Of a DNA stretch of 60,909 nucleotides, positions 1-33,682 are shown one piece after another. Position 1 is the first letter of the stretch. Each line of letters opens with the position of its first letter. The notes under the pieces were generated by a model that was not told the DNA's origin, made no database searches, and saw nothing but the letters and a program-made list of their open reading frames with translations. The position numbers were made by a program, and so were the translations under genes. Source of the DNA: Spirochaetales bacterium (lineage in GTDB: Bacteria > Spirochaetota > Spirochaetia > DSM-27196 > SKKC01); the NCBI GenBank assembly GCA_007135605.1, contig SLIN01000075.1:1-60909 (forward strand), in the 5' to 3' direction.

Positions 1-83
1 CCGCCTGCTCTCTCCGGCAGCAGTGTCGGTCCGCCTCCGAGTCGTCTTTCCTTCCCTTCTCTATTCGCTGTGAAAGATCATCC

Positions 84-117
84 CCCGCCTCCGAAGGCGG
101 GACTCGTGTGATATCAC
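84..117. terminator. GC-rich hairpin (CCCGCCT-ccga-AGGCGGG, 84..101) followed by the perfect 10-bp palindrome GTGATATCAC (108..117). Possible bidirectional terminator and/or operator, downstream of the minus-strand operon that ends at 385.
   Basis: Read directly from the sequence: 7-bp perfect stem with a 4-nt loop, then a self-complementary decamer. No clear U-tract. Confidence 0.3.
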
Positions 118-384
118 GAACCGACACACAACGTCAAGATATCCACACCATTCGCTCACCAAATTGTCAGCGTGGTGCTGCGGTAGAAGCCGCACATGAC
201 TGTCGGATGATTGATCGCGCCGGCGGGCAACGCCAGCGTGTTCATAAACGTAATCGATTCCGCCGTAGCGTGTCAATACGGTAAACGCCGAAACAGGTCG
301 ACGCCGAACGTGGACAACCCTGTGACCACCGACTCGCATACTACCGACTCCTCCAACGCCACCGGCTCGGCAACAGCGAAAGCT

Positions 385-1647
385 TCAGAACGAATAGGTG
401 AATCCGGTCGTCAGCGTCGCGGCACCCGGCCGCTTCCAGCTGAAGACCGCCGCGTCGTCTCCGGTCTGCACTCCGGCGAAGGCGACCATATTGAACCCAC
501 CGAAGACGTTCCAGTTCATACCCGCGCTCGTCAGTGCGGATCGGTCTATCGGCGAAACTACCGATCGAAGCACCAGCGAGACCGTGCGACTCGGCGTGAG
601 AATCAGCTCCGGATAGAACGTGAGTCCGTAGTCAGCGTGCGGATTGGACTGATCTTCCCATTCGGCACCCGGACGAATGAGCGCCTCGAGCCGTGCATCG
701 AGGGTCGTATCGTAGCCCAGGCGAAAATGGTTGTAGCCGCCGACGCTGAAGGTTGTGCGTTCCCAGGCATTATCCGGATCGATCGCTCCGTCGAGCGATA
801 TCCGACCGGCGCCGTATACATCAACTCCGATAAGCCCCGAAACGCTCAACACCGCTTCGTGCCGCTCGGTCGGTCCGTCATAGAGATAGCCGGGCTCGAA
901 GGTGAACCGCCCCGCCTCGAAGCTCAATCGTCCGCCGGCACGAGTACGGTCGATTCCCGGAACCGCTGTCTCGGCGACGATCGCTCCGGCGGCTTCGTCG
1001 TCGTCCACGCCTTCAACGGACTCCGCTCCGCCGGCCGCCGCGGCAAACTCCAGCCCCGGCAGCGGCGGCAGCACTATCGGCTCGAAATACGCGAAATCGC
1101 CGAGCGGGAAGTAGATTGCGGTAAGCCACGTTGTCTCGTCGCGAAGATCGTCGGAAATCTCCAGAAAGTCGGCGGCACCGGTCCCGTCGGCGCCGAATAT
1201 AACGTCGGCGGCGTTAAAAAGCCGACCCGAGCCCCACGAGACGCGATCGCGTCCGGCGGTGACGCGCACGGTATACCCTTCGGTCACCGGGAAACGGAAC
1301 CGGATGGATGCTCGCGGCACTGAAAGGACCGACGCCGACAACGACCTGCCGGTCAAGGGGTCGAGAATCGAACCGAGTATCGCCTTCAGCGTGAGTCTCG
1401 CCTGTACGTTGCGATCGCGGTCCGAGCGCAGGTCGATGACGCCGGAGCCGTAACCGACCAAACCGAGCTCCTCCTCGGCGCCGTCCCACGCAAGCGTATT
1501 CAGCGCATCGATCTCGCCACCGACACGAGCCTGCGCAGCGAGCGGCGCAACGCCGAGACAAAGCCATACCGCCGCGATGAATACAATCGCCGGCAGACGG
1601 GCCGCCGGGCCGCCGGAAGTCACATCGCTTCGATCGACGCCTACCAT
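385..1647 (-). CDS. Putative outer-membrane beta-barrel protein (signal peptide, AQA cleavage motif, C-terminal ...GFTYSF).
   Basis: 420-aa ORF with an N-terminal hydrophobic signal and alternating hydrophobic residues. The terminal aromatic residue is typical of OMP beta-signals. Overlaps the upstream LolA-like gene by 7 nt, so it is the last gene of that operon. ATG confirmed ('cat' at 1645..1647). Confidence 0.6.
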   Translation of the reverse strand: MVGVDRSDVTSGGPAARLPAIVFIAAVWLCLGVAPLAAQARVGGEIDALNTLAWDGAEEELGLVGYGSGVIDLRSDRDRNVQARLTLKAILGSILDPLTGRSLSASVLSVPRASIRFRFPVTEGYTVRVTAGRDRVSWGSGRLFNAADVIFGADGTGAADFLEISDDLRDETTWLTAIYFPLGDFAYFEPIVLPPLPGLEFAAAAGGAESVEGVDDDEAAGAIVAETAVPGIDRTRAGGRLSFEAGRFTFEPGYLYDGPTERHEAVLSVSGLIGVDVYGAGRISLDGAIDPDNAWERTTFSVGGYNHFRLGYDTTLDARLEALIRPGAEWEDQSNPHADYGLTFYPELILTPSRTVSLVLRSVVSPIDRSALTSAGMNWNVFGGFNMVAFAGVQTGDDAAVFSWKRPGAATLTTGFTYSF

Positions 1648-2405
1648 GTCAGCTCCTCCAGCGAGAATATATTCGCCGGCAGCGACACGCCGATTTGCAC
1701 ATCGTCGATAATCATCTCGGTGCCGCTGGAACCGCGCGTCACATCGATGACCTCGATATGCGTCGGGAAGATGTAGCCGTCCTGCTCGGTCGTCTCCAGA
1801 ATGAGCGTCTCCTTCAGCAGCCGTCCTCCCCGCGCAAACTGTTCGCTCTTTCGCACCACAAACTCCTCGCGGTCCACATAATAGACCTGCTCCGGATACG
1901 CCACATTCGTGCCGCGCGCTTCGAGTCTGATCTTGTACGTCGGTCTGCCGTTGACCTCCTCCTCTCCAATGAGAGTTGCGCGGTAGTCGTCGATAATGCC
2001 GCGACCACCGGTCATGTCCTCGTAGGAGATGTCGGAGCCGAGCAGCGAATCGCGAAGCGCAGAGCCCTGCAACCGGATCACCTCGCGTGCGTCCGGATAG
2101 TAGAGGTAGAGATTGTCGTCGCGTCTAAGGATTCGCTGGCCTTCCTCATCCCGCGAGGTGAATTCCACGAGAAAACGATCGGCGCCTTCCGTGTGCGCGA
2201 TGTACGTGCTGACACGCTCGCCGAAGCGGTCGGTGATAATCATCCGCCCCTCCATGATGCTCGTGGAGTGCGTCTGGTTCTCCTCCATCCGCTCGATGAT
2301 CTCCTCGGCGGTCAGTTCCTGTGCCGGGGCCGGAGCAACGAACAGGAGTGCAGCCAGCCCCGCTACCACCGTTGCTACGATTCTTCGTCCCGTTTGGTGT
2401 TTCAT
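1641..2405 (-). CDS. LolA-like 'outer membrane lipoprotein-sorting protein' family (periplasmic, with signal peptide).
   Basis: The translation has the composition and length of PF17131/LolA-like proteins. Start is more likely MKHQ at 2405 than the track's 2420, because GGAGAGG sits 5 nt upstream. Signal-peptide-like n/h regions and an APA cleavage site. Confidence 0.6.
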   Translation of the reverse strand: MKHQTGRRIVATVVAGLAALLFVAPAPAQELTAEEIIERMEENQTHSTSIMEGRMIITDRFGERVSTYIAHTEGADRFLVEFTSRDEEGQRILRRDDNLYLYYPDAREVIRLQGSALRDSLLGSDISYEDMTGGRGIIDDYRATLIGEEEVNGRPTYKIRLEARGTNVAYPEQVYYVDREEFVVRKSEQFARGGRLLKETLILETTEQDGYIFPTHIEVIDVTRGSSGTEMIIDDVQIGVSLPANIFSLEELTW

Positions 2406-2517
2406 TTCGGTCCTCTCCATAATTTTTTAAGGTTGATGTTTCCTGCCGCGATCGACTCGGACAACCGTTTATCGTCGCCGCTCTCGCCTTCGTGGTGTGC
2501 CGGCCGCCGCTTCCCTT

Positions 2518-3744
2518 TTACTCCCGCAGCGCCTCCACCGGTTTCAGTTTTGCAGCGCGCCGCGCCGGAAAGACCGAGGCGATCATGGCGACCGCCGACG
2601 AGTAGACGAACACCACGAGCGTCGATCGAAGGTTGAGCACCGGATAGAGCACCGAGGAGATGTCCATGTTCGCCATTTCCATCGCCACCCCGAAATCGAT
2701 CCCGATCTGCTGCAGCGGAATCGTGACACCGATTCCGAGCAGTACGCCGGCCAGCGACCCGGCCACTCCGATATATGCCGCCTCGGCGAAAAAGAGGCGC
2801 ACCAGCTCGTCTCCGTGCATACCCATCGCGCCGAGCGTACCGATCTCGCGGGTGCGCTCGTGAATCGTCATCATCGTCGTGTTGATGACGACGGTGCTTC
2901 CGAGAATGAAGAACACCAACGCCATGATGTTGTACACGACATCGGCCATCTGGAGGTACGCCCATCCGCCGCTGACCTCGGTCCACGGCGTTACGCTCAG
3001 CCCCTCGGCGCCGCTCTCACGAACCGCGTCGCGAACGTCGGAGGTCAGCGCTTCGAAGTCGCCGTTGTCGCTTTTGACGAAGATCTCGCTCACCCCGTCG
3101 CCCATCCGCAGGTAGCGCGCGGCCGACTCCAGTGGAAGGATAAACGCAGTTCGGTTCATGCCGGCCATCGGAAAGTCGGCGAAACCGACCACGTCGACGG
3201 TAAACGCGTTCGAAGTTCTCAGCCTCGTCTGCGTGAGAAAGGTCGCCTGGCCACCTAATTCGACGCCGAGGTCCCGGGCGAGCGCATGCCCGAGTATCGC
3301 CTCGCTCGTACCCGGCTCGGGCAGACGCCCGGACGCTACGATATCCTCGAGGTCCTGGTAGCCGCGTTCGAGCTCCAGATCGACTCCTATCCCTCGGGCA
3401 GCGATCTGACGATCGTCGCGAAACGCCGCCGCCGGGACATTGATGCGTGGACTCACCCGCCAAACATGCGGCTGTCCCTGTAACCGCTCGACGATACCGG
3501 CGTAGTCGGGCACGACGTACTGCACCGGATTAAGATGCTCGTACCGGTCGAACTCGGCGTGGCGCAGACGCACCTCCCCGGTCTCGTAGTTCCAGGAGTT
3601 GTGCCGGACATCGACCTTGATCCCTTCGAGTACCGAGAAGAGCATCGTAATAGAGAACGCGGCGACCGCAATGGCGATTATCGAGAGCAGGCTGCGCCTG
3701 CCGTTCCGGAATACATTTCTGAACGCAATGGTTGATATTTTCAT
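2518..3744 (-). CDS. ABC transporter permease, FtsX/MacB/LolE-like (N-terminal TM, large periplasmic domain, C-terminal 3-TM FtsX core).
   Basis: 408-aa ORF with MKISTIAFRNVFRNGRRS... N-terminus typical of LolC/E and MacB permeases. ATG confirmed. Confidence 0.8.
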   Translation of the reverse strand: MKISTIAFRNVFRNGRRSLLSIIAIAVAAFSITMLFSVLEGIKVDVRHNSWNYETGEVRLRHAEFDRYEHLNPVQYVVPDYAGIVERLQGQPHVWRVSPRINVPAAAFRDDRQIAARGIGVDLELERGYQDLEDIVASGRLPEPGTSEAILGHALARDLGVELGGQATFLTQTRLRTSNAFTVDVVGFADFPMAGMNRTAFILPLESAARYLRMGDGVSEIFVKSDNGDFEALTSDVRDAVRESGAEGLSVTPWTEVSGGWAYLQMADVVYNIMALVFFILGSTVVINTTMMTIHERTREIGTLGAMGMHGDELVRLFFAEAAYIGVAGSLAGVLLGIGVTIPLQQIGIDFGVAMEMANMDISSVLYPVLNLRSTLVVFVYSSAVAMIASVFPARRAAKLKPVEALRE

Positions 3745-3754
3745 CGCACGCTCC

Positions 3755-5038
3755 TCACGAATGGCGCAGCGAATCGGTGATCCGGCGGCGAAGCATTCGC
3801 CGGGTCGGCACGAGCGCTACGACGCCGGCGATCAATACTGCGAAGACCGCAGCTGCGATCATCGAAGTGAAATGCCACACGCCGTACAGCACTCCGTCGA
3901 AACGGAAATCCATCTCGATCTCCATGAGCACTCCGTAGTCGATTCCTACGGCAACCGCGTGCCACACGAGCAGGGCCCCGAGAATCAACCCGACGATCGC
4001 GCCGATGAGGCCAATGCCGGCGGCTTCGAACGTGAACATCCAGCGGATCTCCCCGTCTCGCACGCCGAGCGCGCGCATCATACCGATTTCGTTTTCCCGC
4101 TCGAGCACCGACATGAGCATCGTGTTGGAGATGCCGACCACCGCGATAATACCGAGCAAGATCAGGATAATGGCGGTCCCGGCGTTCTCCATCTCCATCA
4201 CCTCGGCAAAATCCTCGTTCAGCCGGTAGAAACCGAGCACCTCGATGCCGTCGAACTCCGAGAGCAACTCCCGCACCGGCCCCGGATCGGCGTCCGCCGG
4301 AAGCATCCCGGGCAACGACAGGTAAACTGCGGTAACCGCTCCGCGCATTTCGAGGTACTCGTCGGCGACCGCGATCGGCAGGTACGCCTTATGGCGATTG
4401 ATAAACGGGTTCGAAGTGTTGAAGATGCCGACGATCTCCAGGTCCATAATCTGATAGAAGCCGTCGCGGGTTCGCGTGGTCACGGTAACCGGATAGCCGA
4501 CCTCCGCGCCGAGTTGATCTGCGAGCCATCGCCCGATAATCACCTCTTCGTTGCCGGGCTCGAGAAATCTCCCCGCCTCGATCGCCTCGGACAGTGCGAA
4601 GACCCTCGAGTCGCGCTCTATATCGATTCCGTAGAAGGCGCGCTGCAGCGACCCGTCCTCCGGAAACGGGTCATAGCGGACGATCAGATCGCCGCGAAAC
4701 GCGATACGTGGCGCAGCCGCGATTTCCTCTGCCTCGAGCAGCGAAAGAATCGCCTCCGGGTCTTCGACAGGCATGTCGAGCGGAAAGGTATCGCGCTCGT
4801 CCCAGTAGCCGGACCCCATGATCGCTGCATCGCCGGTTTCGTAACGCGACATATTCCGGTCGTTCTCCGCCTCGAAACCCTGGAGAATCGAGAACATCCA
4901 GATAAAGACCGCCACACCGACCGCGATTGCCCCGGCGGTGATCACCGTGCGCCGGCGGTGCCGCGCGAGATTCTTCATTGCCAGGGCGAGGAAGAATCCG
5001 CCGCGCGTGCGTCCGTTCCGATACGGTCGGGCACTCAT
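3755..5038 (-). CDS. ABC transporter permease, FtsX/MacB/LolC-like.
   Basis: 427-aa ORF. N-terminus aligns with LolC (..AMKNLARHRRRTVITAGAIAVGV..) and the C-terminus has an FtsX domain. Lies 1 nt downstream of the ATPase gene. Confidence 0.8.
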   Translation of the reverse strand: MSARPYRNGRTRGGFFLALAMKNLARHRRRTVITAGAIAVGVAVFIWMFSILQGFEAENDRNMSRYETGDAAIMGSGYWDERDTFPLDMPVEDPEAILSLLEAEEIAAAPRIAFRGDLIVRYDPFPEDGSLQRAFYGIDIERDSRVFALSEAIEAGRFLEPGNEEVIIGRWLADQLGAEVGYPVTVTTRTRDGFYQIMDLEIVGIFNTSNPFINRHKAYLPIAVADEYLEMRGAVTAVYLSLPGMLPADADPGPVRELLSEFDGIEVLGFYRLNEDFAEVMEMENAGTAIILILLGIIAVVGISNTMLMSVLERENEIGMMRALGVRDGEIRWMFTFEAAGIGLIGAIVGLILGALLVWHAVAVGIDYGVLMEIEMDFRFDGVLYGVWHFTSMIAAAVFAVLIAGVVALVPTRRMLRRRITDSLRHS

Positions 5039-5039
5039 A

Positions 5040-5723
5040 CTATGCGCTCCTTCGCTCGTCGCTTTCGATCAGTCCGTCGTGCAGCCGGCAGAGCCGGTCG
5101 CCGTAGTCCATGACCATCTGGTCGTGGGTCGAGAAGATGAAGGTCGTTCCGCGATGCCGGTTAATATCTTTCATGAGCTTGAGGATCGCCTCGCCGGTCG
5201 TCGAATCGAGATTCGCCGTCGGCTCGTCGGCGAGCACGATGAGTGGATCCTTGATCAGCGCCCGCGCGACCGCGACGCGCTGCTGCTGGCCTCCGGACAG
5301 CCGCGACGGGCGGCGGTGTTCCATTCCTTCCAGGCCGACCTCGGCGAGCAGCGCCATTGTGCGCTCGCGATTTTCCGCGTCCGATACGCCGAGCAGCGAC
5401 AGCGCCATGGACACGTTCTCGTACGCGGTGAGAACAGGAATGAGATTAAAGCTCTGGAAGACGAAACCGATTTTCGCCCGGCGGATCTCGGTCAGCTCCT
5501 TCTTGCTCTTGCCGCCGACCCGGTCGCCGTCGATATCGACGTCGCCGCTGTCGGCGTTGTCGATGCAGCCGATGATATTCAGCAATGTGGTCTTGCCCGA
5601 ACCCGAAGGACCCGCGATCGACAGGAACTCACCACCTTCGATCTTCAGCGACACACCCCGCAGCGCGCGCACGTGAGTCTCACCATCTATGTATTCCTTA
5701 TGGACTTCGTTTACCGCTATCAT
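5040..5723 (-). CDS. ABC transporter ATP-binding protein (LolD/MacB-NBD-like).
   Basis: Walker A GPSGSGKTT, signature LSGGQQQRVAVARAL and Walker B LIVLADEPT. 4-nt ATGA overlap with the upstream SPFH gene. Confidence 0.9.
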   Translation of the reverse strand: MIAVNEVHKEYIDGETHVRALRGVSLKIEGGEFLSIAGPSGSGKTTLLNIIGCIDNADSGDVDIDGDRVGGKSKKELTEIRRAKIGFVFQSFNLIPVLTAYENVSMALSLLGVSDAENRERTMALLAEVGLEGMEHRRPSRLSGGQQQRVAVARALIKDPLIVLADEPTANLDSTTGEAILKLMKDINRHRGTTFIFSTHDQMVMDYGDRLCRLHDGLIESDERRSA

Positions 5724-6925
5724 TTCCGTTCTCCTTCAACGCCGGAGGCCCCGCCCTCGGGCTCTGCCGCCGGATCCTCCGAATCGTGATACGGCCGTTC
5801 GCCGGCCGTTTCGGCGCCGCGCCGCAGCGCCGCCGCCCCGAGCGCGGTTCCGAGATTCATCGAGTCGAGCGCCGAGCTCGGTATTAACATCATGTTCTCG
5901 TTCTGCTTCATGCCGTCGTAGACCATATTCATGGCGCGAAGCTGAAACGCCGTCGGGTTCTGCTCGTAGCGGTGTCCCGCCTCTTCGAACTTCTCCGCGA
6001 TTTCCACTTCCGCCGAGCTGAGGATGACCCTCGACTGACGCTCGCGCTCGGCCTGTGCCTTGCGGCTCAACGCATCCTCGAGCTCCTTCGGCAACAACAC
6101 CTCCTTGAACTCAATTGAAAGGATGGTGATGCCCCACGGGCTGGTCTTCCGGTCGAGTATCTCCTGGATTTCCGAGCCGAGCCGCTCCCGTTCGCTGAGA
6201 AGTTTCGAAAGGTCGTTTCGACCGATATTGTCGCGCAGCGCCGCCTGGGCCGAGAGTGTTACCGCATCGCGATACTTCTCCACCTCCAGAATCGCCTTCT
6301 CGGCATCCCACACCATCCAGAAGGCGAGCGCGTCGACATGCACCGGTACGGTGTCGCGCGTGACCGAGCGCTCGGCGGAAAAGTCGGTAACGCGTATCCG
6401 CATATCGACGTGTGCGACGATGGTGTCGAGCACCGGCAGCAGCAGGTGCGGGCCGGGCTCGAGCGTTCGATAGAAACGACCGAGGCGGAAGACCAGCGCG
6501 CGTTCCCACTGCTGCACGATCTGAATGGTCGGCGCGATGAGCAATCCCGCGCTGACAATCGCAAGCGCGGGCGCCATAACGCCGTCACCGATCGGTCCGA
6601 CCGCCGCCCATACCGCCACGATCACCGCGAGCACGATCGGCCACAGCGGCAATATCGCGATAACGATTGCCCCGCCGACCACCGCTGCGCCGAGCGCGCC
6701 GACCGCCTCCACCGGCGGTACGCCGTCGATAAGCACCTGAACCACGGCTCCCACCGCCAGAAACACGACGAGTGTAAGTGCCGACAGCGTGGTCATCGCG
6801 AAGTGAGTCGGACGCGTGAACGACGGAATCTGTCGCGCACCGCGGTTGGACTCGGCGCGATTCGACGTGTTGCGATCGGGTTCGGTGCGGGCGGACTCGC
6901 TATGTTTCGACCCGAAGAGCTTCAT
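5720..6925 (-). CDS. SPFH/band-7 (stomatin/HflC-like) membrane protein with a multi-TM N-terminal extension and an acidic C-terminal tail.
   Basis: The SPFH core (..ERALVFRLGRFYRTLEPGPHLLLPVLDTIV..) is recognisable. Start ATG 6923..6925 overlaps the GntR stop (ATGA). A GGAGGG RBS lies inside the GntR C-terminal codons. Confidence 0.8.
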   Translation of the reverse strand: MKLFGSKHSESARTEPDRNTSNRAESNRGARQIPSFTRPTHFAMTTLSALTLVVFLAVGAVVQVLIDGVPPVEAVGALGAAVVGGAIVIAILPLWPIVLAVIVAVWAAVGPIGDGVMAPALAIVSAGLLIAPTIQIVQQWERALVFRLGRFYRTLEPGPHLLLPVLDTIVAHVDMRIRVTDFSAERSVTRDTVPVHVDALAFWMVWDAEKAILEVEKYRDAVTLSAQAALRDNIGRNDLSKLLSERERLGSEIQEILDRKTSPWGITILSIEFKEVLLPKELEDALSRKAQAERERQSRVILSSAEVEIAEKFEEAGHRYEQNPTAFQLRAMNMVYDGMKQNENMMLIPSSALDSMNLGTALGAAALRRGAETAGERPYHDSEDPAAEPEGGASGVEGERK

Positions 6926-7347
6926 TTTTCTCCCTCCTCATGGTAGGCGATGAGATAATCGACGAGATCCTGCACGGTGAAACCGTAGGAGGCCGCCTGG
7001 CTCACGAAGCCCCGCACCAGCTGCGACAGAATCTGCTCGCGGTCGGCATCCGAGAGCGCAATCTCCTTGTCGCTTATAAAGGTGCCGGTTCCGTGCTGGG
7101 TGCTGACCAGTCCGCGAATCTCGAGTTCGTTGTAGGCGCGGGCGACCGTATTCGGGTTCACCTGCAGTTCCACCGCGAGTCCGCGGACCGTCGGAAGCTG
7201 GTAACCCGGCTTGAGTCGACCGTCGGCAACCGCCATCTCAATCTGCAGAATGATCTGGCGGTAGTACGGAATTCCGCTGCCGGGATCGAGTACGATCTCT
7301 ATCGAACGCTTGTCTTTCGCCACGTCGACTCCATCCAATTCTTCCAT
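6922..7347 (-). CDS. GntR-family transcriptional regulator, short YtrA-like subfamily (wHTH plus short C-terminal helices).
   Basis: HTH segment IPYYRQIILQIEMAVADGRLKPGYQLPTVRGLAVELQVNPNTVARAYNELEIRGLV resembles YtrA. The annotated ATG has no SD. An internal GTG (Val9) preceded by GGAG may be the true start. Confidence 0.8.
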   Translation of the reverse strand: MEELDGVDVAKDKRSIEIVLDPGSGIPYYRQIILQIEMAVADGRLKPGYQLPTVRGLAVELQVNPNTVARAYNELEIRGLVSTQHGTGTFISDKEIALSDADREQILSQLVRGFVSQAASYGFTVQDLVDYLIAYHEEGEK

Positions 7348-7392
7348 TGGTGTATCATATCACTAATACACTGGTATAGTGATACACATTGA
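7348..7392. promoter_or_regulatory. Nested palindromes immediately upstream of the GntR gene: GTGTAT-N10-ATACAC, and GTGTATCA...TGATACAC with TATCA direct repeats. Candidate autoregulatory operator.
   Basis: Read directly: tggtgtatcatatcactaatacactggtatagtgatacacattg. Built on a GTGATA/TATCAC core. The site lies next to the regulator's own start. Confidence 0.4.
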
Positions 7393-7539
7393 CCGACATG
7401 TCAACAGAAAAGTGACCGGATATGCAACGAATTCGGCAAAGGTGTGGATATACGAGCGTAACGTGCGCCGGCCTTACCGGTAGCGCGTTATGCGCTTCGC
7501 TGTATACGGGCCCCGTCGATCCGGGGCCCGTAGGTGGGT

Positions 7540-8397
7540 CTACTTGTCGGCCTCGGTCAGGCCTTTCACGAAGCTCTTCTGCATACCGAGCACGAGCAAC
7601 ATGGTCGGGATCATCGAGAGGATGGTTATCGCCATGATGATGTGCCAGTCTGCTTGCGCATCTCCGGCGTTCAGCATTCGTCCGAGACCGATCATGACGG
7701 TATAGAAGCGTCGCTCGGTTGTGATCAGCAGAGGCCACAGATACTGGTTCCAGCCGTACACGAACTGGATGACGACCAGTGCCGCGATCGGCGTGCGCGA
7801 CATGGGGACGAGTATGTAGCTGAAGAAGCGCATCGGCCCCGCGCCGTCGATCTTCGCCGCCTCGACGAGCTGGTCGGGTATCGTCATGAAGTACTGCTTG
7901 AAGAGAAAGGTCGCCGTCGCCGACACCGCAAGGGGCAGTATGAGACCCACGTAGCTGTTGAGCATGCCGAGACTGGAAACCAGCCCGTATGTCGGCACGA
8001 TCCGGACTTCCACCGGCAGCATGAGAGTCATGAAGATTAACCAGAATAGAATACTGCGCCCGGGGAAGCGGAAGAACACGATGGCGAAGGTCGAAAGCAG
8101 CGACACGACGATCTTCGCTACGGTTATGCCGCCGGCCATGATAAAGCTGTTCTGAAGCATTACCCCGGCGCCGATCGCGCGCGCACCGCCGAGGCCGCGC
8201 CCACCGTGGAAGATAGCCTGGTAGTAGTTCTGGATAACCTCGCTTCCGGGAAGAAGCGGCATCGGTCGCTGGAATATCGCCGGGAGCGGAATAGTGGACG
8301 CCACGAACACGAAATAGATCGGAACTATAACGATAAGACAGCCGATGACGAGAAAGAAATGTCGAAAAACTCTGGTCGGTGTTGAATCGAAAATCAT
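7540..8397 (-). CDS. Carbohydrate ABC transporter permease (UgpE/LacG-like, MalG family).
   Basis: 285-aa, 6-TM, with the EAA-like loop (..EAAKIDGAGPMRFFSYILVP..). Confidence 0.85.
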   Translation of the reverse strand: MIFDSTPTRVFRHFFLVIGCLIVIVPIYFVFVASTIPLPAIFQRPMPLLPGSEVIQNYYQAIFHGGRGLGGARAIGAGVMLQNSFIMAGGITVAKIVVSLLSTFAIVFFRFPGRSILFWLIFMTLMLPVEVRIVPTYGLVSSLGMLNSYVGLILPLAVSATATFLFKQYFMTIPDQLVEAAKIDGAGPMRFFSYILVPMSRTPIAALVVIQFVYGWNQYLWPLLITTERRFYTVMIGLGRMLNAGDAQADWHIIMAITILSMIPTMLLVLGMQKSFVKGLTEADK

Positions 8398-20676: not shown

Positions 20677-21852
20677 TCAATCGATGGTGCGCTCACCCCG
20701 GATTAGCCGGGCGAGTTTCCGCAACGGTGCGGGGAATCGCCGCACTGCGCGGTGTCCGCCGATGAATGGAACCGGCCACGATGAGAGACCGAAGCCGACG
20801 GCACTTTCGAGCGGAGGCACGGGTTCGGCCTGAAACGCACCGTAAATGAGGTAAACGAGGCCGGCAAGAATAGCGAGTCCCAATAGCATGTACGCGACGA
20901 AGTAGATCGATGAGGGGCCGGCTGACGCCACGCTCGAATCGGCTTCGCCGGCAGTTTCCCCCTCCTCGTCCTCGATACCCGGCTCCGTGGCCGCGTGCGA
21001 AGCGAGGCGTTGATCCGCGTACGGTGAGTCGAACTCATCGAAAGAGAAGTCCTCGGTTTCGGCGCGGGCGGGCGCCGCTTCCTTACCTTCGACGGGTGTC
21101 AGCTCGTCGCTCGCAGCTTCGAGGGATGCCGGCTCTTCATACTCGCTCGCACCTTCCAGGGATTCCAGCTCGTCATACTCGCTCGCAGCTTCGAGCGGTG
21201 ACGGCTCTTCGTCCTCGCCCTCAGCGTCGAACTCGCCGGAAAACGGTTGCTCACTCTCACCGACGTCGCCCGACGCCTGATCGAACTCAGAATCATCCTC
21301 CTCGGGAAGCTCAAACGCAAGGTCGTCGAGGTCCGGGCCGCCGAACTCCGGTTCGTCGGCCGATTCCGGAGACGATTCATCCGGATCGAAAACCGGCGGT
21401 TCTTCGAGTTCCCCTGAAAGATCGAAGGTTTCCTCGTCGTCGAGGGAGAAATCCGGGAGCTCCTCCGAGGTACCCTCGACGGATGTCTCTGTGCCGATTT
21501 CGTCGGTACGATCGAGGCTGATCGAAAGACTCTGAGTATCGCCGTTCGAGAGATTCTGCGCGCGTGCCTGCAGTTGCCCCCGATCGTCAATGCCGACGAC
21601 GAGGCTGATCTCGACGCTTCCGGCGGAAGCGGAATCGATATCATCGATAACGAGGCTCCCGACGTACTCGGCGTTGGCGAGGTCGTGGCGATCACCCTGG
21701 TACATGTCTATCTGGACGCGCTCCTGATTGTCGCGTGAGGTGGTCAGCACGACCCGTTTTCGGCCACGGTCGTTCCGATCGAGGATCGGAAACCGCGACC
21801 CGTCTGCCGTCTTTATAGCGATCACAGCGTTGTCCACCGGTAATCCTCCCAA
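20677..21852 (-). CDS. Membrane protein whose only recognisable domain is an N-terminal Hsp70/DnaK substrate-binding beta-domain. This is followed by a long acidic repeat region, one TM helix and a roughly 55-aa tail.
   Basis: The N-terminal 110 aa align residue-by-residue with DnaK SBD-beta: MGGLPVDNAVIAIKTAD..QIDMYQGDR..VEISLVVGIDDRGQLQARAQNLSNGDTQSLSI versus [48 protein letters not shown]. The track start is TTG. GGAGGA followed by GTG at 21837 may be the real start. TM segment SIYFVAYMLLGLAILAGLVYLIYGAF. Confidence 0.6.
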   Translation of the reverse strand: MGGLPVDNAVIAIKTADGSRFPILDRNDRGRKRVVLTTSRDNQERVQIDMYQGDRHDLANAEYVGSLVIDDIDSASAGSVEISLVVGIDDRGQLQARAQNLSNGDTQSLSISLDRTDEIGTETSVEGTSEELPDFSLDDEETFDLSGELEEPPVFDPDESSPESADEPEFGGPDLDDLAFELPEEDDSEFDQASGDVGESEQPFSGEFDAEGEDEEPSPLEAASEYDELESLEGASEYEEPASLEAASDELTPVEGKEAAPARAETEDFSFDEFDSPYADQRLASHAATEPGIEDEEGETAGEADSSVASAGPSSIYFVAYMLLGLAILAGLVYLIYGAFQAEPVPPLESAVGFGLSSWPVPFIGGHRAVRRFPAPLRKLARLIRGERTID

Positions 21853-21945
21853 GCTCTGCGGGTCAAGCGTATGGCAGCGGTTCAGCCTTTGTCAACGAAA
21901 GCGGACTCGATTGACGAGGGCGAAACTCGACGGAATAATACCCGC

Positions 21946-23304
21946 ATGTCTCTCCCCGTCATTATCGGCATCCTGACGATCGGGATTATCGTCCTGGCGG
22001 CCATTGCCGTGTCTATTCTCAACCAGGATCGTCGAAAGAGCGGCGGTGGCGGCGGCAAGGTACGCGATCGCGCCACGATTCTGAAGCAGGCCAACAAGCG
22101 TCTCGCACAGAACCCGAAGGATGTCGGTGCGCTCAGCGAGCTCGCGGATCTCTACTATCGCGAAGAAGACTGGGAGAAGGCGTTCAAGACATACGACGCC
22201 CTCTTGCAGCTGGCTCCGAGCAACGATCAGGTTGACGAGTTCGAGGTCACTCTTCGGCACGCCCTCAGCGCCATGCGGGAAGGCCATCTCAATGAAGCGT
22301 ATAAGGGGCTGCTCCTTGCGCGACAGACGAAGCCGGATCTGTTCGAGATCAGCTACAACCTCGGATACCTGGAATTCCGGAGACGAAACTACGAGAAAGC
22401 GGTTTCGCTGCTCCGGGAGGCAAGTTCGCAGCAACCGGAGCATGGCGGGACACTCCGCTATCTCGGACAGGCGCTCTTTCGAATGAAGGAATACAAGAAT
22501 GCACTCGCGACCCTGCGTAGAGCGGTGGATCAGGAACCGGGGGATAAGGAGTCGCAGTTTGCACTTGCACAATGCTATTACGAGCTCGGTCAGCAGGAGC
22601 AGGCGTTGCGTATCTTCAGCCACCTCCGCGCCGATCCGACGCTCGGTCCGAGTGCCTCGTTGAGAGCCGGATTGATTCGCTCACAACAGAAGAAGTACGA
22701 GGAGGCGATCTACGACTTCGAGATCGGACTGAGGCACGAGTCGCTGAAGCCGGAAATCGAGCTCGAGCTGCGTTACCGCATGGCCAACGCGTACACACGC
22801 AATCAGCAGGTCAACAAGGCGGCACAGGTTCTTCGTGAAATTCACGCAATCAAGCCGGACTACAAAGATGTGGCAGCCCAGCTCGGTCGGGCGGAGGAGC
22901 TCAGCAGCGACAGGAATTTGCAGACGTATCTCATCGGCCCGTCGAGCGATTTTGTGAGCGTGTGCCGGCGCATAGTCGCCGCATATTTCTCGAATGCGAA
23001 CATGAAGCTCGAGGACATTCACGTGGAATCGAATCAGCACGCAGATCTGCTCGCCCAGGTGGAAACGCGGCACTGGGAGGATCTGATCCTGTTTCGATTT
23101 ATCCGCCACAGCGGCAATATCGGTGAGCTGATGCTGCGCGATTTCCACACGCGAATTAAGGAAGTGAAGGCCGGTCGCGGCATCTGTTTCTGTGCCGGTG
23201 AGTTCACCGATGGGGCACGGGCATTTGTGGAGGCTCGCCTGGTGGACCTCCACGACAAGAGAGAACTGCAGAAGCATCTGCAAAAGATCATGACGCGGTT
23301 CTAA
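21946..23304 (+). CDS. Membrane-anchored TPR-repeat protein with a C-terminal restriction-endonuclease-like (Mrr_cat/PD-(D/E)xK-like) domain.
   Basis: N-terminal TM LPVIIGILTIGIIVLAAIAVSIL, then multiple TPR motifs. The C-terminal 120 aa have Mrr_cat-like secondary-structure and motif order. An alternative upstream ATG at 21871 has no SD. 21946 is preceded by a TTGACG-17-AATAAT promoter-like element, suggesting a leaderless mRNA. Confidence 0.6.
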   Translation: MSLPVIIGILTIGIIVLAAIAVSILNQDRRKSGGGGGKVRDRATILKQANKRLAQNPKDVGALSELADLYYREEDWEKAFKTYDALLQLAPSNDQVDEFEVTLRHALSAMREGHLNEAYKGLLLARQTKPDLFEISYNLGYLEFRRRNYEKAVSLLREASSQQPEHGGTLRYLGQALFRMKEYKNALATLRRAVDQEPGDKESQFALAQCYYELGQQEQALRIFSHLRADPTLGPSASLRAGLIRSQQKKYEEAIYDFEIGLRHESLKPEIELELRYRMANAYTRNQQVNKAAQVLREIHAIKPDYKDVAAQLGRAEELSSDRNLQTYLIGPSSDFVSVCRRIVAAYFSNANMKLEDIHVESNQHADLLAQVETRHWEDLILFRFIRHSGNIGELMLRDFHTRIKEVKAGRGICFCAGEFTDGARAFVEARLVDLHDKRELQKHLQKIMTRF

Positions 23305-28780: not shown

Positions 28781-30229
28781 TCACTCGAGGCGACGCATAA
28801 GCTCATATCCCGCTATCTCACCGATTCGGCGAAATGCCGCGCTAATCGTGCTGACCGAATCACCGCCGCTGCTTCGGGTGAATCCCGACCAGCCGCCGAG
28901 CACGCGGTTGCTTCCCGTCTCGATAACGGAGAAGTCTCCGTCCACGCGGGCGAGCATACCGTTGCGCTCCTCGAACTCCGTGATCGCCGTACGACCGACG
29001 ATCACGAGCTCGACGCTCGGTGCGTTGCCGAGCACCAGATCCACGATCTCGCGATCACTCATATCGGCGGCGACACCGGGGCTCGATCCGGCATGGACGA
29101 GAACGTAACCGGCCCGCTCCAGGGTAGTGGTGAGCGAGGTCGCGGCACGACTCTCGCTCAGTGGATTTCCCGCCCGATCACGTTCCACGACAACTACTGC
29201 TATAGATCGATCGGAGACGTCGAGTGCGAAATCGTACGGAAATCGGACGCGCAAATCGCGGATGACCGTACGAAGTGCCGTGAGCTCACGCCCGCCGTCG
29301 GCGACAGGAATAGCATCGAGCTCCGAGCTCAGCGATACGCCCATCCGTACGTAGCCGGATCCCGGCGGGGTGTCGTCGGGAAGCGCGAACGTGACTCGGC
29401 CCGAGGCGTCGGTAGACGCCCTCGTCGTGCCGATCCCCGTCCGGCCGTGTGCCAATCTTACCGGGTGAGTGATCGACACCGGGACGCCGGACAACGGCGT
29501 CGTCCCCTCCGCAGTCTCGGCGTACACCTGTGCGGTCATCGGATCATCGGCGACCGGGCGCATCCGGACGCTCGAGAGAACATCCTCAGCCCGTCTCAGG
29601 CTGGAAGGCATCGTCGACTTCATCCCGTCGATTTCGCTTTCGGCGGCCGCAGCTGCAGCGCGCAGGTAATGCTGCGCGGCCTTCACATAGTCGCCTTCGG
29701 CTTCCAGCGCAAACGCGGTCCGCATCGGCGCTTCGACCGCCTCGATCCGCGCCTCGAATAGCGCGGTCAGCCGCGCCCGCTCCCGCTCGAGCGCATCGCG
29801 ATCGTATCGCGCGAGCAGATGAATCTCCACCCGGCCGTCACGGACCTCGACGAACCGGTCCTCGATCCGCAGCCCCTCGATACGAGCGGTGCCGTGCTGC
29901 TCTACCGTACGTGTCACCCGGCCCGTGAAATCTTCGAGCGACGCCTCGGCAACCGCGGTGCTCTCGGTACGTATTGTGACACCGAGATAACGCGTGATCT
30001 CGGAGACGAGCGCGGCTGTTGCCTCGTCCTCGGCCGCCGCCCTGCTGCCCCCGGCGTCCACACCGCGTCCGACGAAGTACTCCGCGTCGCTGGAGGTCGG
30101 AGGAGATCCGAGAACCCATTCCGGCTGTTCGGCCCTCTCTTCGGGCGACAAATCAGGGGAGGTGGCACACGCGGAAGCAACCAGGAGCGACAGAGTACAT
30201 AATCCCAACAGACGATTTCGGCCGAGCAT
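28781..30229 (-). CDS. Lipoprotein with an N-terminal LPP20/FlgP-like domain and a C-terminal CsgG/LpoB-like alpha/beta domain.
   Basis: Lipobox LLVASAC. LPP20 signature ..PEWVLG..YFVGRGVDAGGSRAAAEDEATAALVSEITRYLGVTIRT.. C-terminal ..IAVVVVERDRAGNPL..VDLVLGNA..ARVDGDFSVIETGSNRVLGGWSG.. resembles the CsgG-family fold. Confidence 0.55.
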   Translation of the reverse strand: MLGRNRLLGLCTLSLLVASACATSPDLSPEERAEQPEWVLGSPPTSSDAEYFVGRGVDAGGSRAAAEDEATAALVSEITRYLGVTIRTESTAVAEASLEDFTGRVTRTVEQHGTARIEGLRIEDRFVEVRDGRVEIHLLARYDRDALERERARLTALFEARIEAVEAPMRTAFALEAEGDYVKAAQHYLRAAAAAAESEIDGMKSTMPSSLRRAEDVLSSVRMRPVADDPMTAQVYAETAEGTTPLSGVPVSITHPVRLAHGRTGIGTTRASTDASGRVTFALPDDTPPGSGYVRMGVSLSSELDAIPVADGGRELTALRTVIRDLRVRFPYDFALDVSDRSIAVVVVERDRAGNPLSESRAATSLTTTLERAGYVLVHAGSSPGVAADMSDREIVDLVLGNAPSVELVIVGRTAITEFEERNGMLARVDGDFSVIETGSNRVLGGWSGFTRSSGGDSVSTISAAFRRIGEIAGYELMRRLE

Positions 30230-30250
30230 GAACGCGCTACCGGACCGACA

Positions 30251-30916
30251 TCAGAGCCCTTCCTCGGCAAGCGCCCGGCGCACACGCTCGCGCACGGTTC
30301 GCTCATCCTCGGTTCTCGGCTCCTGCGCTTGTCGCTCCGCGACCTCAATGGCGTGAAGCACCTGACGATCGAGCAGATCGCGATCAATGGTATAGAGAAC
30401 GGTATAACGATACTCATCGCGGTCGACCGTAGTGCGGTCGGCTTCATACCAGCGATACTGAACCCACCATTCGCCGGCACGTCGGAAGCCGCTGAACTCC
30501 GCCTCGGACATGGTCTTAACTACGTTTTCCATGTACGTTTCGATCGCATCGACTTCCCCCGCCGCGGCACCGGCGAAGCGCTGCTCCACACGGGTGCTAA
30601 CCTGCTGCGCGATCTGAGCCGGTGCGCTGAAGTTCTGCGCCCACATCTCCACCCCGCGCAGATCGCTGCCGGATTCCTCCAGAACGACAGCATACGTGCC
30701 TTCGAACTCATCCATCGCCTCAACGGCGGCCGCACCCTCGAGGCTTACCCGCACCCATTCCGGTGCGTCGACACCGCGCGAGCTTCCTCTGTGCTGCAAC
30801 ACGACGAACGGTTGCACCGCTTCATCGGCCGGATCGGGTGTGCTCGCGCACCCGACGATTACCAGCAGTACCGCGGAGGTCACAACGCATATTCGAAGCA
30901 GTCCACGCATAGCCAA
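30251..30916 (-). CDS. Small lipoprotein, LPP20/FlgP-like.
   Basis: Lipobox VIVGCAS, and ..PEWVRVSLEGAAAVEAMDEFEGTYAVVLE..APAQIAQQVSTRVE.. has the same pattern as LPP20 family members. Confidence 0.5.
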   Translation of the reverse strand: MAMRGLLRICVVTSAVLLVIVGCASTPDPADEAVQPFVVLQHRGSSRGVDAPEWVRVSLEGAAAVEAMDEFEGTYAVVLEESGSDLRGVEMWAQNFSAPAQIAQQVSTRVEQRFAGAAAGEVDAIETYMENVVKTMSEAEFSGFRRAGEWWVQYRWYEADRTTVDRDEYRYTVLYTIDRDLLDRQVLHAIEVAERQAQEPRTEDERTVRERVRRALAEEGL

Positions 30917-30939
30917 GGCTCCTCTGTAGCCGGTCCGAA

Positions 30940-32226
30940 TCAGAGACCGGAGTGAAAGGTGAGCGACTTACCGCGTCGGATCACCTGGTAGATGTTTTCC
31001 ATACCCGGCGTGGCATCGCCCGCCGCGTACACAATATCCTCGACTTCGTCGAGCGGTCCGTAGTGGCGGACCACGAAGTGCGTCGAATCGGGGCTCTGAC
31101 TCAACGTCTCGACCGATTCGGTACGTTCGCGCAGCATCTGGCGAAACCGGCCGACCATACGAGCATCGGGCGTGTTCTGCACAACGATTTCGTAGCGAAT
31201 TCCACGACTCAGATTCTGCTCCATGAGCACGCGACTCTGGTCAATCATTCGCGGCATGGCCGCGTAGACGGCGCTTTGTACTGCATTTGCACGAGCATCG
31301 AATTCATCGACTCTGCTCACCGCCCGCTCACTCCGGTACGGCACCGACCCGAGCAGTTGGCCCGTCGACGTTTCGAACATTCTCAATGTGATGTTCGCCT
31401 GTCCGTAGTGGGTATTTCGCTCGGTCGATCCACTGACGCTTGCGTCGAGCTCGACATAGACATCGGCATTGAGCCGCTGTGCGACCCATTGAAGGATGCT
31501 GACATCCCGACCGGTCTCTTCCTCGTACACCAGGCGCTGGTCCTCCTTGAGACGCTTCACCTGCCGTGCATCCACCGCGTAATAGCCGTTTGAGGTGAGA
31601 TAGCTGTTCGCCTGCCCGACACCGAGCTCCAGCAGGAACGGTTCGGTGCTCGCACGTTCGGCGTCGTGGTAGACCATATAGGTCATCGAGTCGATGTAGC
31701 GCCGGATGAACTCACGCTCGGAGGGACCTGCCGCGCCCCAGTCGGTCTCCGTGGTCGTTTCGGGCGAGCGATCCGCGTCGTCGGCCGGCCTTGCGGTCGC
31801 CCGGTCCACGGAGTCGTCGATACGGTTGGCCGACAGCGTTCGCCGGACCGCATCCACGTTCACCGCGATACGCAGCTCGTAGACATAGTCCGGGTCCTCG
31901 AATGTGCCGAGGTTCTCTCTGCGAAGCGTTTCCATCGTCTCGGTGTGGACGAACTGGTTCGGATTGCGCGTGCGATAGATGACATCCTCGAGGGTAGCGG
32001 CGTGGTAGCGTTCGGCCTCCTCCCCGATTTCGTCGGTTATGAAGGCACGAACCGCCTCCATCTTGGCCGCATTCATCGCCGTACCGAACGATTCCCCACG
32101 TCCGGACGCCTCGTACACCGCATCCGTTCGATCGATGGCCGGCTGGTCGGTTGCGCACGCGGACACGACAAGTGCGATCACTCCGAGCAGAAGCGATCTA
32201 CTGACAGCGCGGTGAAAGAACCTCAT
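30940..32226 (-). CDS. Lipoprotein with an LPP20-like N-region and a CsgG-like alpha/beta C-region.
   Basis: Lipobox VVSACAT. ..VYEASGRGESFGTAMNAAKMEAVRAFI.., and later ..ANITLRMFETSTGQLLGSVPY.. Confidence 0.5.
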   Translation of the reverse strand: MRFFHRAVSRSLLLGVIALVVSACATDQPAIDRTDAVYEASGRGESFGTAMNAAKMEAVRAFITDEIGEEAERYHAATLEDVIYRTRNPNQFVHTETMETLRRENLGTFEDPDYVYELRIAVNVDAVRRTLSANRIDDSVDRATARPADDADRSPETTTETDWGAAGPSEREFIRRYIDSMTYMVYHDAERASTEPFLLELGVGQANSYLTSNGYYAVDARQVKRLKEDQRLVYEEETGRDVSILQWVAQRLNADVYVELDASVSGSTERNTHYGQANITLRMFETSTGQLLGSVPYRSERAVSRVDEFDARANAVQSAVYAAMPRMIDQSRVLMEQNLSRGIRYEIVVQNTPDARMVGRFRQMLRERTESVETLSQSPDSTHFVVRHYGPLDEVEDIVYAAGDATPGMENIYQVIRRGKSLTFHSGL

Positions 32227-32235
32227 TCCGAGCTC

Positions 32236-33654: not shown

Positions 33655-33682
33655 GTCCCGGAAACCCCTGGCCGTTCGCACG

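Follow-up and report, generated by a model that had tools for sequence, protein, structure and literature searches.

A spirochete operon combining a LolE/LolF-like ABC transporter, a LolA-like carrier and a predicted outer-membrane barrel as a candidate inducible exporter

Organization of the operon and properties of its core products

The window analyzed here is a stretch of 60,909 nucleotides from a Spirochaetales bacterium (contig SLIN01000075.1 of assembly GCA_007135605.1, positions 1 to 60,909). The list of open reading frames (ORFs), together with Pfam and NCBIfam scans, revealed seven consecutive co-directional ORFs on its minus strand (385–7347). They encode a short GntR regulator, an SPFH protein, an ATP-binding cassette (ABC) ATPase, two permeases, a LolA-like protein and a predicted β-barrel protein. 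This agrees with the gene content given in a preliminary description of the same DNA, which proposed that the products form a trans-envelope machine resembling Lol or MacAB. The features of the locus are listed below in the direction of transcription.

7399–7404, minus strand: TTGACA, a −35-like hexamer (read from the sequence; tentative)
7350–7387, no strand assigned: operator-like nested inverted repeats, GTGTATCA-N22-TGATACAC and TATCACTA-N11-TAGTGATA (repeat search)
6922–7347, minus strand: GntR regulator, 141 aa (PF00392, E = 3e-17)
5720–6925, minus strand: SPFH protein, 401 aa (Band_7, E = 4e-33)
5040–5723, minus strand: ABC ATPase, 227 aa (ABC_tran, E = 5e-33)
3755–5038, minus strand: permease 1, with MacB_PCD and FtsX domains
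2518–3744, minus strand: permease 2, with MacB_PCD and FtsX domains
1641–2420, minus strand: LolA-like protein (PF17131, E = 8e-48); the database version begins at the second ATG, 2405
385–1647, minus strand: barrel protein, 420 aa, with no Pfam or NCBIfam match
83–102, minus strand: terminator-like GC-rich hairpin with a T-rich tail (consensus scan, pattern match only)

Three junctions had been described as ATGA overlaps. When read from the sequence, two of them are (GntR/SPFH, 6925–6922, and SPFH/ATPase, 5723–5720), but the LolA-like and barrel genes overlap by 7 nt (ATGGTAG, 1647–1641). The spacers are 1 nt between the ATPase and permease 1 genes and 10 nt between the two permease genes, and a gap of 97 nt precedes the LolA-like gene. 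In the upstream region, TTGACA is followed after 17 nt by a weak −10 candidate, CACTAT, which overlaps the operator-like repeats; a consensus promoter scan upstream of GntR called no promoter. About 280 nt separate the barrel stop codon from the hairpin that lies downstream of it, and the sequence in this region (61–384) is apparently non-coding, with a 92-aa ORF (61–339) that looks spurious. Rfam and tRNA scans of positions 1–7700 gave no match. The operon is surrounded by chromosomal housekeeping genes.

The translation of the ATPase contains readable Walker A, Q-loop, LSGGQ, Walker B and H-loop motifs. Its highest NCBIfam scores are for DevA (219.6 bits), DarD (217.5 bits) and LolD (213.5 bits), all of them under the cut-offs (308 bits for LolD, TIGR02211), and on this basis the protein is classed with the LolD/DevA/DarD/MacB nucleotide-binding domain (NBD) group, with its catalytic motifs intact. 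Both permeases match PF02687 (FtsX) and PF12704 (MacB_PCD), as is characteristic of type VII transporters of the MacB/LolCE fold with a periplasmic MacB_PCD domain; Pfam thus confirms an ABC ATPase with two FtsX-type permeases that carry periplasmic domains. The closest solved relative of permease 1 is LolE (E = 3e-18), and those of permease 2 are LolF (1e-21), LolE (8e-14) and YtrF (2e-13), with YtrF found among the solved relatives of both. The two permeases are paralogues (∼26–29% identity in cross-matches), and the presence of two different paralogous subunits implies a heterodimer.

The MacB_PCD, Band_7 and PF17131 domains that had been predicted from the sequence were all returned by the Pfam scan, and the low E-value for PF17131 bears out the assignment of a LolA-fold periplasmic protein. 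PF17131 is named LolA_like in one copy of Pfam and ‘TP_0789-like’ in the precomputed annotation. At E ≤ 0.01 the LolA-like protein (the carrier) matched only PF17131, MucB_RseB and DUF1329 in Pfam, the match to DUF1329 (PF07044) being weak (E = 0.0026, 17.5 bits against a cut-off of 23.1). Its matches among PDB sequences are 4z48, 3buu, 9tp6 and 3bk5; the solved spirochetal LolA (BB0346) was not matched even at E ≤ 1, and E. coli LolA was also not matched. The carrier has a signal peptide and no lipobox, and a lipobox is present in none of 77 LolA-like proteins. It is therefore not expected to be a lipoprotein, which fits a soluble shuttle, and we predict a soluble periplasmic member of the LolA superfamily. 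Twelve plasmid records matched the carrier at E ≤ 1e-3, with no Borrelia plasmid among them.

The last gene encodes a 420-aa protein that AlphaFold2 (AF2) modeled as an 18-strand barrel, a confident, porin-like prediction whose fold matches general and substrate-specific porins. The protein has a type I signal peptide and terminates with Phe, and the last residue is F or Y in 69 of 72 homologues. A signal peptide, an even number of antiparallel strands, short periplasmic turns and a C-terminal aromatic residue are all present, in line with the earlier proposal of an outer-membrane barrel at the end of the operon. The most conserved segment of the family comprises residues 135–172 between strands 5 and 6 and contains the motif GRDRVSWGxGxLFNAxD; from its position we infer that it is loop 3, the counterpart of the loop that constricts many porins.

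No real Pfam family was matched by the window barrel and its 29 closest relatives, and the family defined here has no Pfam model. Among 43 more diverse members, weak matches were obtained to Caps_assemb_Wzi (PF14052; 12 of 43, best E = 4e-4) and DUF1302 (PF06980; two of 43, best 3e-5), with none for the window barrel itself. DUF1302 and DUF1329 had been suggested as leads, and the weak matches to both offer them faint support. One homologue is labeled ‘Alginate export domain-containing’ in UniRef, and a profile search of PDB sequences with the barrel family returned only the OmpM1 porin (E = 0.003). In an exhaustive HMMER search of 1.84 billion representatives, the family amounted to 307 clusters (50% identity) at E ≤ 1e-3. 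Its named relatives are Spirochaetaceae metagenome-assembled genomes (MAGs), and there was no match to the barrel in 72,556 plasmid records. Judged from sequence and model, it belongs to the superfamily of porin-like barrels, as a small and hitherto unclassified branch with remote similarity to Wzi and DUF1302.

A conserved five-gene core under exchangeable regulators

Conservation of the operon was assessed with a scan seeded with an alignment of LolA-like proteins, using one genome per species. The scan identified 160 LolA-like relatives, of which the best 80 were considered. All 80 are from Spirochaetota (Spirochaetaceae, Alkalispirochaeta, Sediminispirochaeta and Salinispira), and none of these best genome matches is from Treponema, Borrelia, Leptospira or Brachyspira. 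All loci were then surveyed by tblastn with the seven window proteins, and counts were limited to loci with enough flanking sequence. In all 71 spirochete loci with room to judge, the LolA-like gene is followed directly by the barrel gene, and in 60 of 61 evaluable loci the LolA-like gene is preceded by the ATPase, permease 1 and permease 2 genes. Inspection of the neighborhoods of barrel and LolA-like homologues showed this gene order again in loci whose flanks are unrelated. Among cultured species, Spirochaeta africana has all seven genes, and S. thermophila has a TetR gene and the last five. This arrangement recurs, with differing flanking genes, in dozens of independent genomes, which argues that it is not due to chance, and the variation of the flanks indicates that the module is self-contained. 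From the strict linkage counts it follows that the conserved functional unit is the five genes from the ATPase to the barrel. The expectation that the whole operon is conserved in relatives therefore holds for this core, while GntR and SPFH accompany it in about half of the loci.

In 59 of 81 loci, the stop codon of the carrier gene and the start codon of the barrel gene share a 7-nt overlap, and a further 12 loci have a 4-nt overlap, an arrangement suggestive of coupled translation. These data bear on the possibility that the barrel is an ordinary diffusion porin that neighbors the operon and has no joint function with it. Such a role would be in agreement with the porin-like fold and with OmpM1 as the only match in the PDB profile search. 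However, the adjacency is invariant and, like the overlapping stop and start, is retained across relatives down to ∼30% identity. The family is also small, and within the spirochete set the LolA-like gene was present in every locus with enough length to reveal the barrel. We therefore regard an unconnected porin as barely credible.

The GntR regulator comprises a winged helix (residues 29–91; PF00392) and a ∼50-aa tail without an effector domain. Its best NCBIfam matches, to the Rv1152 family (73 bits) and PmtR (66 bits), are both under the cut-off. It nevertheless shows both traits of the YtrA subfamily that were checked, namely the architecture and the position at the head of an ABC operon next to a palindrome, and by these features it is a short YtrA-like repressor, as had been proposed. 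The nested inverted repeats (7350–7387) are located just upstream of the GntR start codon, and we infer that this putative operator is bound by GntR. A TTGTACTA-N(0-18)-TAGTACAA palindrome was found within ∼70 nt of the GntR start in ∼19 of 28 related GntR-type loci (among them L001, L002, L006, L036–L045, L061 and L070), and the window version has diverged to GTGTATCA…TGATACAC. The arrangement of a short GntR gene as the first gene of an ABC operon with a palindromic operator is shared with YtrA of B. subtilis, PmtR of S. aureus and Rv1152 of M. tuberculosis; in contrast to these regulators, and in addition to its sub-threshold scores for PmtR and Rv1152, the GntR described here is strictly paired with a stomatin-like protein with four transmembrane (TM) helices.

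In comparisons with PDB sequences, this SPFH protein matched PH stomatin (E = 4e-37), human stomatin (∼3e-35), QmcA (4e-27) and HflK/C (1e-9 to 1e-11). Its NCBIfam scores are below the cut-offs for both HflK (71.6 versus 159 bits) and HflC (45.6 versus 134 bits), and its homologues carry the NCBI name ‘slipin family protein’. It is accordingly classed as a stomatin/slipin-type protein, and the likeness to the HflKC and FtsH scaffolds that had been noted for it was not upheld. Hydropathy and charge analysis and the AF2 model indicate a K/R-rich N-terminal tail and four TM helices (residues 46–67, 72–91, 95–113 and 118–133; predicted local distance difference test (pLDDT) 88–94). These helices are the only part that was modeled confidently (the SPFH domain has pLDDT values of 36–66), and the model was not used for a fold search. 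By the positive-inside rule, the SPFH domain is probably located on the cytoplasmic side. Four TM helices and a domain that probably faces the cytoplasm make an HflKC/FtsH-style periplasmic cage unlikely, and caging of periplasmic domains in the manner of HflKC was rejected on family scores and predicted topology. No gene for NfeD, the operon partner of prokaryotic stomatins, was found in the operon or related loci, where the partner is always GntR.

For 52 loci there was enough upstream sequence to judge the presence of GntR and SPFH. Both genes are present in 25 of these and neither in 27, and there is no locus with only one of them. At least 22 of the 27 loci without the pair (among them L007, L012, L013, L019, L020 and L032) have a gene for a TetR-family protein (∼230–275 aa) directly before the ATPase gene, usually overlapping the ATPase start. 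The ATPase, permease 2 and carrier sequences were concatenated for a rough neighbor-joining tree, on which operons of the GntR type are interspersed with those of the TetR type, and at least 11 switches are required among 56 taxa. SPFH homologues at 48–54% identity are always encoded behind a short GntR gene whose stop overlaps their start, and the pair was found in three contexts: in full seven-gene operons, before ABC-2-type exporters without LolA-like or barrel genes, and as a stand-alone pair. Besides the window (5720–7347), the pair is present in L088, L089, L094, L095, L096 and the P0340 locus. The strict co-occurrence, the replacement by TetR, the interspersion on the tree and the occurrence of the pair alone or before ABC-2 exporters make GntR-SPFH look like a mobile regulatory cassette that is interchangeable with TetR, and not like a scaffold needed by the transporter. 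The suggestion that SPFH is a structural part of the machine is likewise hard to reconcile with its absence from about half of the loci, where TetR is found instead. A literature search found no paper on GntR-SPFH pairs and none that mentions YtrA together with stomatin, slipin or flotillin.

The regulator also raises the possibility of an envelope-stress or antimicrobial-peptide resistance system similar to YtrBCDEF, BceAB or PmtABCD, in which the ABC transporter would remove a membrane-active peptide or antibiotic or shield the membrane from it, the YtrA-like repressor would sense it, and the LolA-like protein and barrel would dispose of it. PmtR and Rv1152 as the best family matches of GntR, YtrF among the relatives of both permeases and the GntR-SPFH cassette before ABC-2 exporters elsewhere all point in this direction. 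However, the PmtR and Rv1152 matches are under the cut-off, half of the operons have TetR in place of GntR, and no peptide precursor or immunity genes were found near the operon. We consider such a system decidedly unlikely as a separate explanation, and it overlaps largely with the export reading that we favor, from which only the cargo class differs.

Relationship to known envelope systems and possible counterparts in other phyla

In its presumed working, the system is a hybrid of Lol and MacAB, yet by family scores and components it belongs to neither. The proposal of a Lol- or MacAB-like trans-envelope machine is supported in outline by the domain content, the linkage and the barrel prediction, whereas the Lol equivalog scores and the lack of LolB, a MacA adaptor and TolC set the operon apart from both systems. 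As in the LolCDE–LolA–LolB pathway, there is a separate ATPase, two paralogous permeases with MacB-like domains and a LolA-fold periplasmic protein, and the permeases have LolE, LolF and LolC as their nearest relatives of solved structure. The operon differs from the Lol pathway in that its equivalog scores are a third to two-thirds of the cut-offs, its carrier belongs to PF17131 and is not a canonical LolA, an integral 18-strand barrel takes the place of LolB, and it is under a local repressor with translational coupling to the barrel gene. The outer-membrane partner had been envisaged in a role like that of LolB or TolC, but the porin-like barrel resembles neither.

These similarities define the strongest of the competing explanations, in which the operon is a specialized Lol-type biogenesis system. 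Its ABC complex would extract either certain lipoproteins, such as those of the cell surface, or an outer-membrane lipid or glycolipid, the LolA-like protein would chaperone this cargo, and the barrel would serve as acceptor or translocon. This explanation draws on the relationship of the permeases to LolF, LolE and LolC, on their heterodimeric nature, as in LolCE, on lolCE (TIGR02212) as the best NCBIfam family of both, and on the LolA fold of the carrier. LolB is missing from spirochetes, for which a second, as yet unidentified route of surface lipoproteins has been put forward (PMC11326224); a Borrelia cluster of a MacB-like ABC transporter, a LolA-like protein and an Omp85 protein has also been proposed to move lipoproteins (PMC13078400). 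However, the lolCE scores (101 and 126 bits against a cut-off of 362) and the LolD score (214 against 308) are far under the cut-offs. The carrier is not a canonical LolA, and a BB0346-type LolA has been reported in diverse environmental spirochetes (PMC11326224), so the operon would be an extra system. Swappable TetR and GntR repressors would be unusual for essential biogenesis, and the best 80 genome matches do not include the four genera named above. Taken together, we consider dedicated lipoprotein or lipid biogenesis unlikely.

The operon shares with MacAB–TolC the FtsX and MacB_PCD permease fold, the MacB/LolD-type NBD and the proposed logic of an outward-acting, repressor-controlled pump. 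It differs from MacAB–TolC in its separate NBD, heterodimeric permeases, LolA-fold periplasmic link and porin-like outer-membrane component. No membrane-fusion (MacA/HlyD) adaptor was detected by Pfam among the seven products, nor was one found in related loci, and none of the seven products matched an OEP/TolC domain in Pfam; unlike the trimeric TolC, the barrel is modeled as a single chain of 18 strands.

The combination of a barrel, a LolA-superfamily protein and an inner-membrane exporter is also found in AmeABCD and in modules of DUF1302, DUF1329 and a resistance-nodulation-division (RND; HAE3) pump in Castellaniella, Pseudomonas and Shewanella. AmeABCD, which combines a DUF1302 barrel, a DUF1329 LolA-like protein and an RND pump, provides tolerance of monoterpenes and efflux of dyes (PMC6394551), and DUF1302/DUF1329 plus RND modules affect tolerance of apolar compounds (PMC6394551; bioRxiv 10.1101/072470). 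The motif GRxRxxWGxG is common to DUF1302 and the barrel family described here. In contrast to AmeABCD, the operon would be powered by an ABC ATPase and not by a proton-driven RND pump, has no BNR protein, and encodes a barrel of ∼400 aa (∼600 aa for DUF1302). By analogy, AmeABCD-type modules are the nearest experimentally touched counterpart.

The same families offer an argument for the opposite direction, in which the barrel and LolA-like protein would bring a hydrophobic nutrient inward and the ABC transporter would insert or release it at the inner membrane; inward transport has been suggested for certain DUF1302/DUF1329 pairs. DUF1302 and DUF1329 genes are needed for growth of Pseudomonas on fatty esters and Tween (bioRxiv 10.1101/2020.07.04.188060; 10.1101/072470), and weak similarity to both families is present here. 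However, none of the loci examined has catabolic genes linked to the operon. Characterized type VII ABC systems also work outward, and uptake appears very improbable.

The nearest published spirochetal analogue is the BBJ23–BBJ29 cluster of Borrelia, described in a computational study from 2026 as containing a MacB-like ABC transporter, a LolA-like protein and a barrel, and proposed to export a non-polar ligand (PMC13078400). Unlike the operon, it has an Omp85-type barrel (BBJ25), a homodimeric permease and TPR proteins, and it lacks GntR, SPFH and TetR. Direct homology to this cluster is unsupported, as there was no Borrelia plasmid among the carrier matches and no plasmid match to the barrel. 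Compared with the 18-strand barrels Wzi and AlgE, the window barrel lacks a Pfam match and linked genes for polysaccharide synthesis or export. A literature search revealed no study of the operon or of PF17131-ABC-barrel clusters.

Similar gene sets were identified outside the spirochete set. A plasmid of Vibrio sp. HDW18 (L093, 4967–8888) encodes an ATPase, an FtsX permease, a LolA-like protein and then a 414-aa hypothetical protein, and a Burkholderia thailandensis plasmid (L092, 6914–12015) encodes a LolA-like protein, an ATPase, a fused permease and then a 380-aa hypothetical protein. Both hypothetical proteins have a signal peptide, end in F and contain the motif G(K/R)xR(I/L)xWGxG at the equivalent position, and the Burkholderia protein scored 21.2 bits against DUF1302 (cut-off 23.2). 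An hhalign comparison of the proteobacterial counterpart with the spirochete barrel family gave E = 2e-4 and a probability of 45% over the region of the shared motif. These data are suggestive, but not proof, that the Vibrio and Burkholderia modules are counterparts of the spirochete module. In Persicobacter, a TetR gene is followed by genes for a 378-aa signal-peptide protein, an ATPase, two permeases and a LolA-like protein; the 378-aa protein was rejected as a barrel relative, as it has no significant profile similarity to the barrel family.

A plasmid of Haliovirga abyssi (L091, 3375–7666) carries genes for TetR, an MMPL transporter and a PF17131 LolA-like protein together. Exporters of the RND/MMPL type are therefore also partners of the LolA-like family. 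The consecutive locus tags TP0789 and TP0790 point to a similar pairing in T. pallidum, where the neighborhood rests on locus-tag numbers and the adjacency is not discussed in PMC5015957 or PMC8407342. TP0789, the namesake of PF17131, is a predicted abundant lipoprotein (PMC5015957), and TP0790 has been modeled as an RND pump (PMC8407342). TP0784–0786 have been modeled as LptC, LptA and LptB (PMC8407342), which ruled out TP0786–TP0788 as an ABC partner of TP0789.

Proposed path of the cargo and implications

On balance, we lean toward the view that the operon encodes an inducible Lol/MacB-style exporter that moves hydrophobic or amphipathic cargo outward, via a soluble carrier, to a dedicated barrel. 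The domain content fits an extractor, a carrier and an outer-membrane component. The outward direction is deduced from characterized type VII ABC systems (MacB and LolCDE), which behave in this way. A local repressor is typical of inducible efflux or detoxification and not of housekeeping biogenesis, and the operons carry one in the form of GntR or TetR in most of the loci compared. The TetR/YtrA-type repressors, the variable neighborhoods and the absence of host-associated spirochete genera from the top matches favor on-demand efflux or detoxification. The cargo is most likely a small lipophilic molecule, lipid or peptide that is expelled or placed in the outer membrane on demand.

In the absence of inducer, a dimer of the YtrA-like GntR protein would bind the palindromic operator (7350–7387) and silence its own operon. 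The SPFH protein, with its four TM helices, might couple the state of the membrane or the substrate load to derepression or, alternatively, cage the transporter from the cytoplasmic side; both roles are speculative. Two ATPase subunits would power the heterodimer of LolE/LolF-like type VII permeases, as expected for this family, and cargo residing in the inner membrane's outer leaflet or in the periplasm would be extracted by mechanotransmission, and not moved across the inner membrane. The LolA-fold carrier would then take over the cargo and deliver it to the 18-strand barrel, in which the conserved, presumably inward-folding loop 3 may serve as a gate or binding site, and the barrel would let the cargo into or across the outer membrane.

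Several observations weigh against this view. The permeases are closer to LolE and LolF (E = 1e-18 to 1e-21) than to MacB (only 1e-6 to 1e-10), which would also fit lipoprotein handling, and no clue to the substrate was found in the gene neighborhood. The barrel model has only short periplasmic turns, which makes the docking mode of the carrier puzzling. In addition, one locus of a Spirochaetia MAG (L060, OZ253446.1, 10001–11991) contains the LolA-like/barrel pair with ABC genes undetected within 9 kb, the sole exception among the 61 loci.

Two type VII ABC envelope architectures are known for comparison, MacAB–TolC and LolCDE–LolA–LolB. In a broader interpretation, which we regard as possible but doubtful, the five-gene core would represent a third, undescribed architecture across diderm phyla, in which a PF17131 shuttle feeds a Wzi/DUF1302-like 18-strand barrel. 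It could provide spirochetes, which lack LolB, with a route that puts lipids or lipoproteins into the outer membrane or beyond it, and the GntR-slipin cassette would be a new, membrane-linked means to control YtrA repressors that have no effector domain. Its range appears to comprise spirochetes, Vibrio, Burkholderia and possibly Bacteroidota.

Elsewhere in the window, four consecutive large ORFs on the minus strand (28781–35710; 482, 428, 503 and 675 aa) have no Pfam match at E ≤ 1e-5. A 477-aa protein (21871–23304, plus strand) contains many TPR repeats and a C-terminal Mrr_cat restriction-endonuclease-like domain, and a 391-aa ORF (20677–21852, minus strand) matches at its N-terminus only a fragment of Hsp70 (profile positions 396–502).

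To our knowledge, the crossing of the periplasm by hydrophobic cargo and its entry into or exit from the outer membrane are well understood only for a few proteobacterial systems, and many spirochetes lack lipopolysaccharide. The operon provides a compact, strictly linked candidate set of extractor, carrier and barrel for such a route, and the apparent counterparts in the genetically tractable Vibrio and Burkholderia make the idea testable. The pairing of GntR with a slipin, exchangeable with TetR, suggests a testable answer to the question of how YtrA regulators without a ligand domain receive their signals. If the operon is merely another inducible efflux pump, the value of these findings is chiefly for annotation. 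Their significance would grow if the carrier–barrel relay were a general third type VII ABC architecture, or if the GntR-slipin cassette were a membrane-sensing switch.

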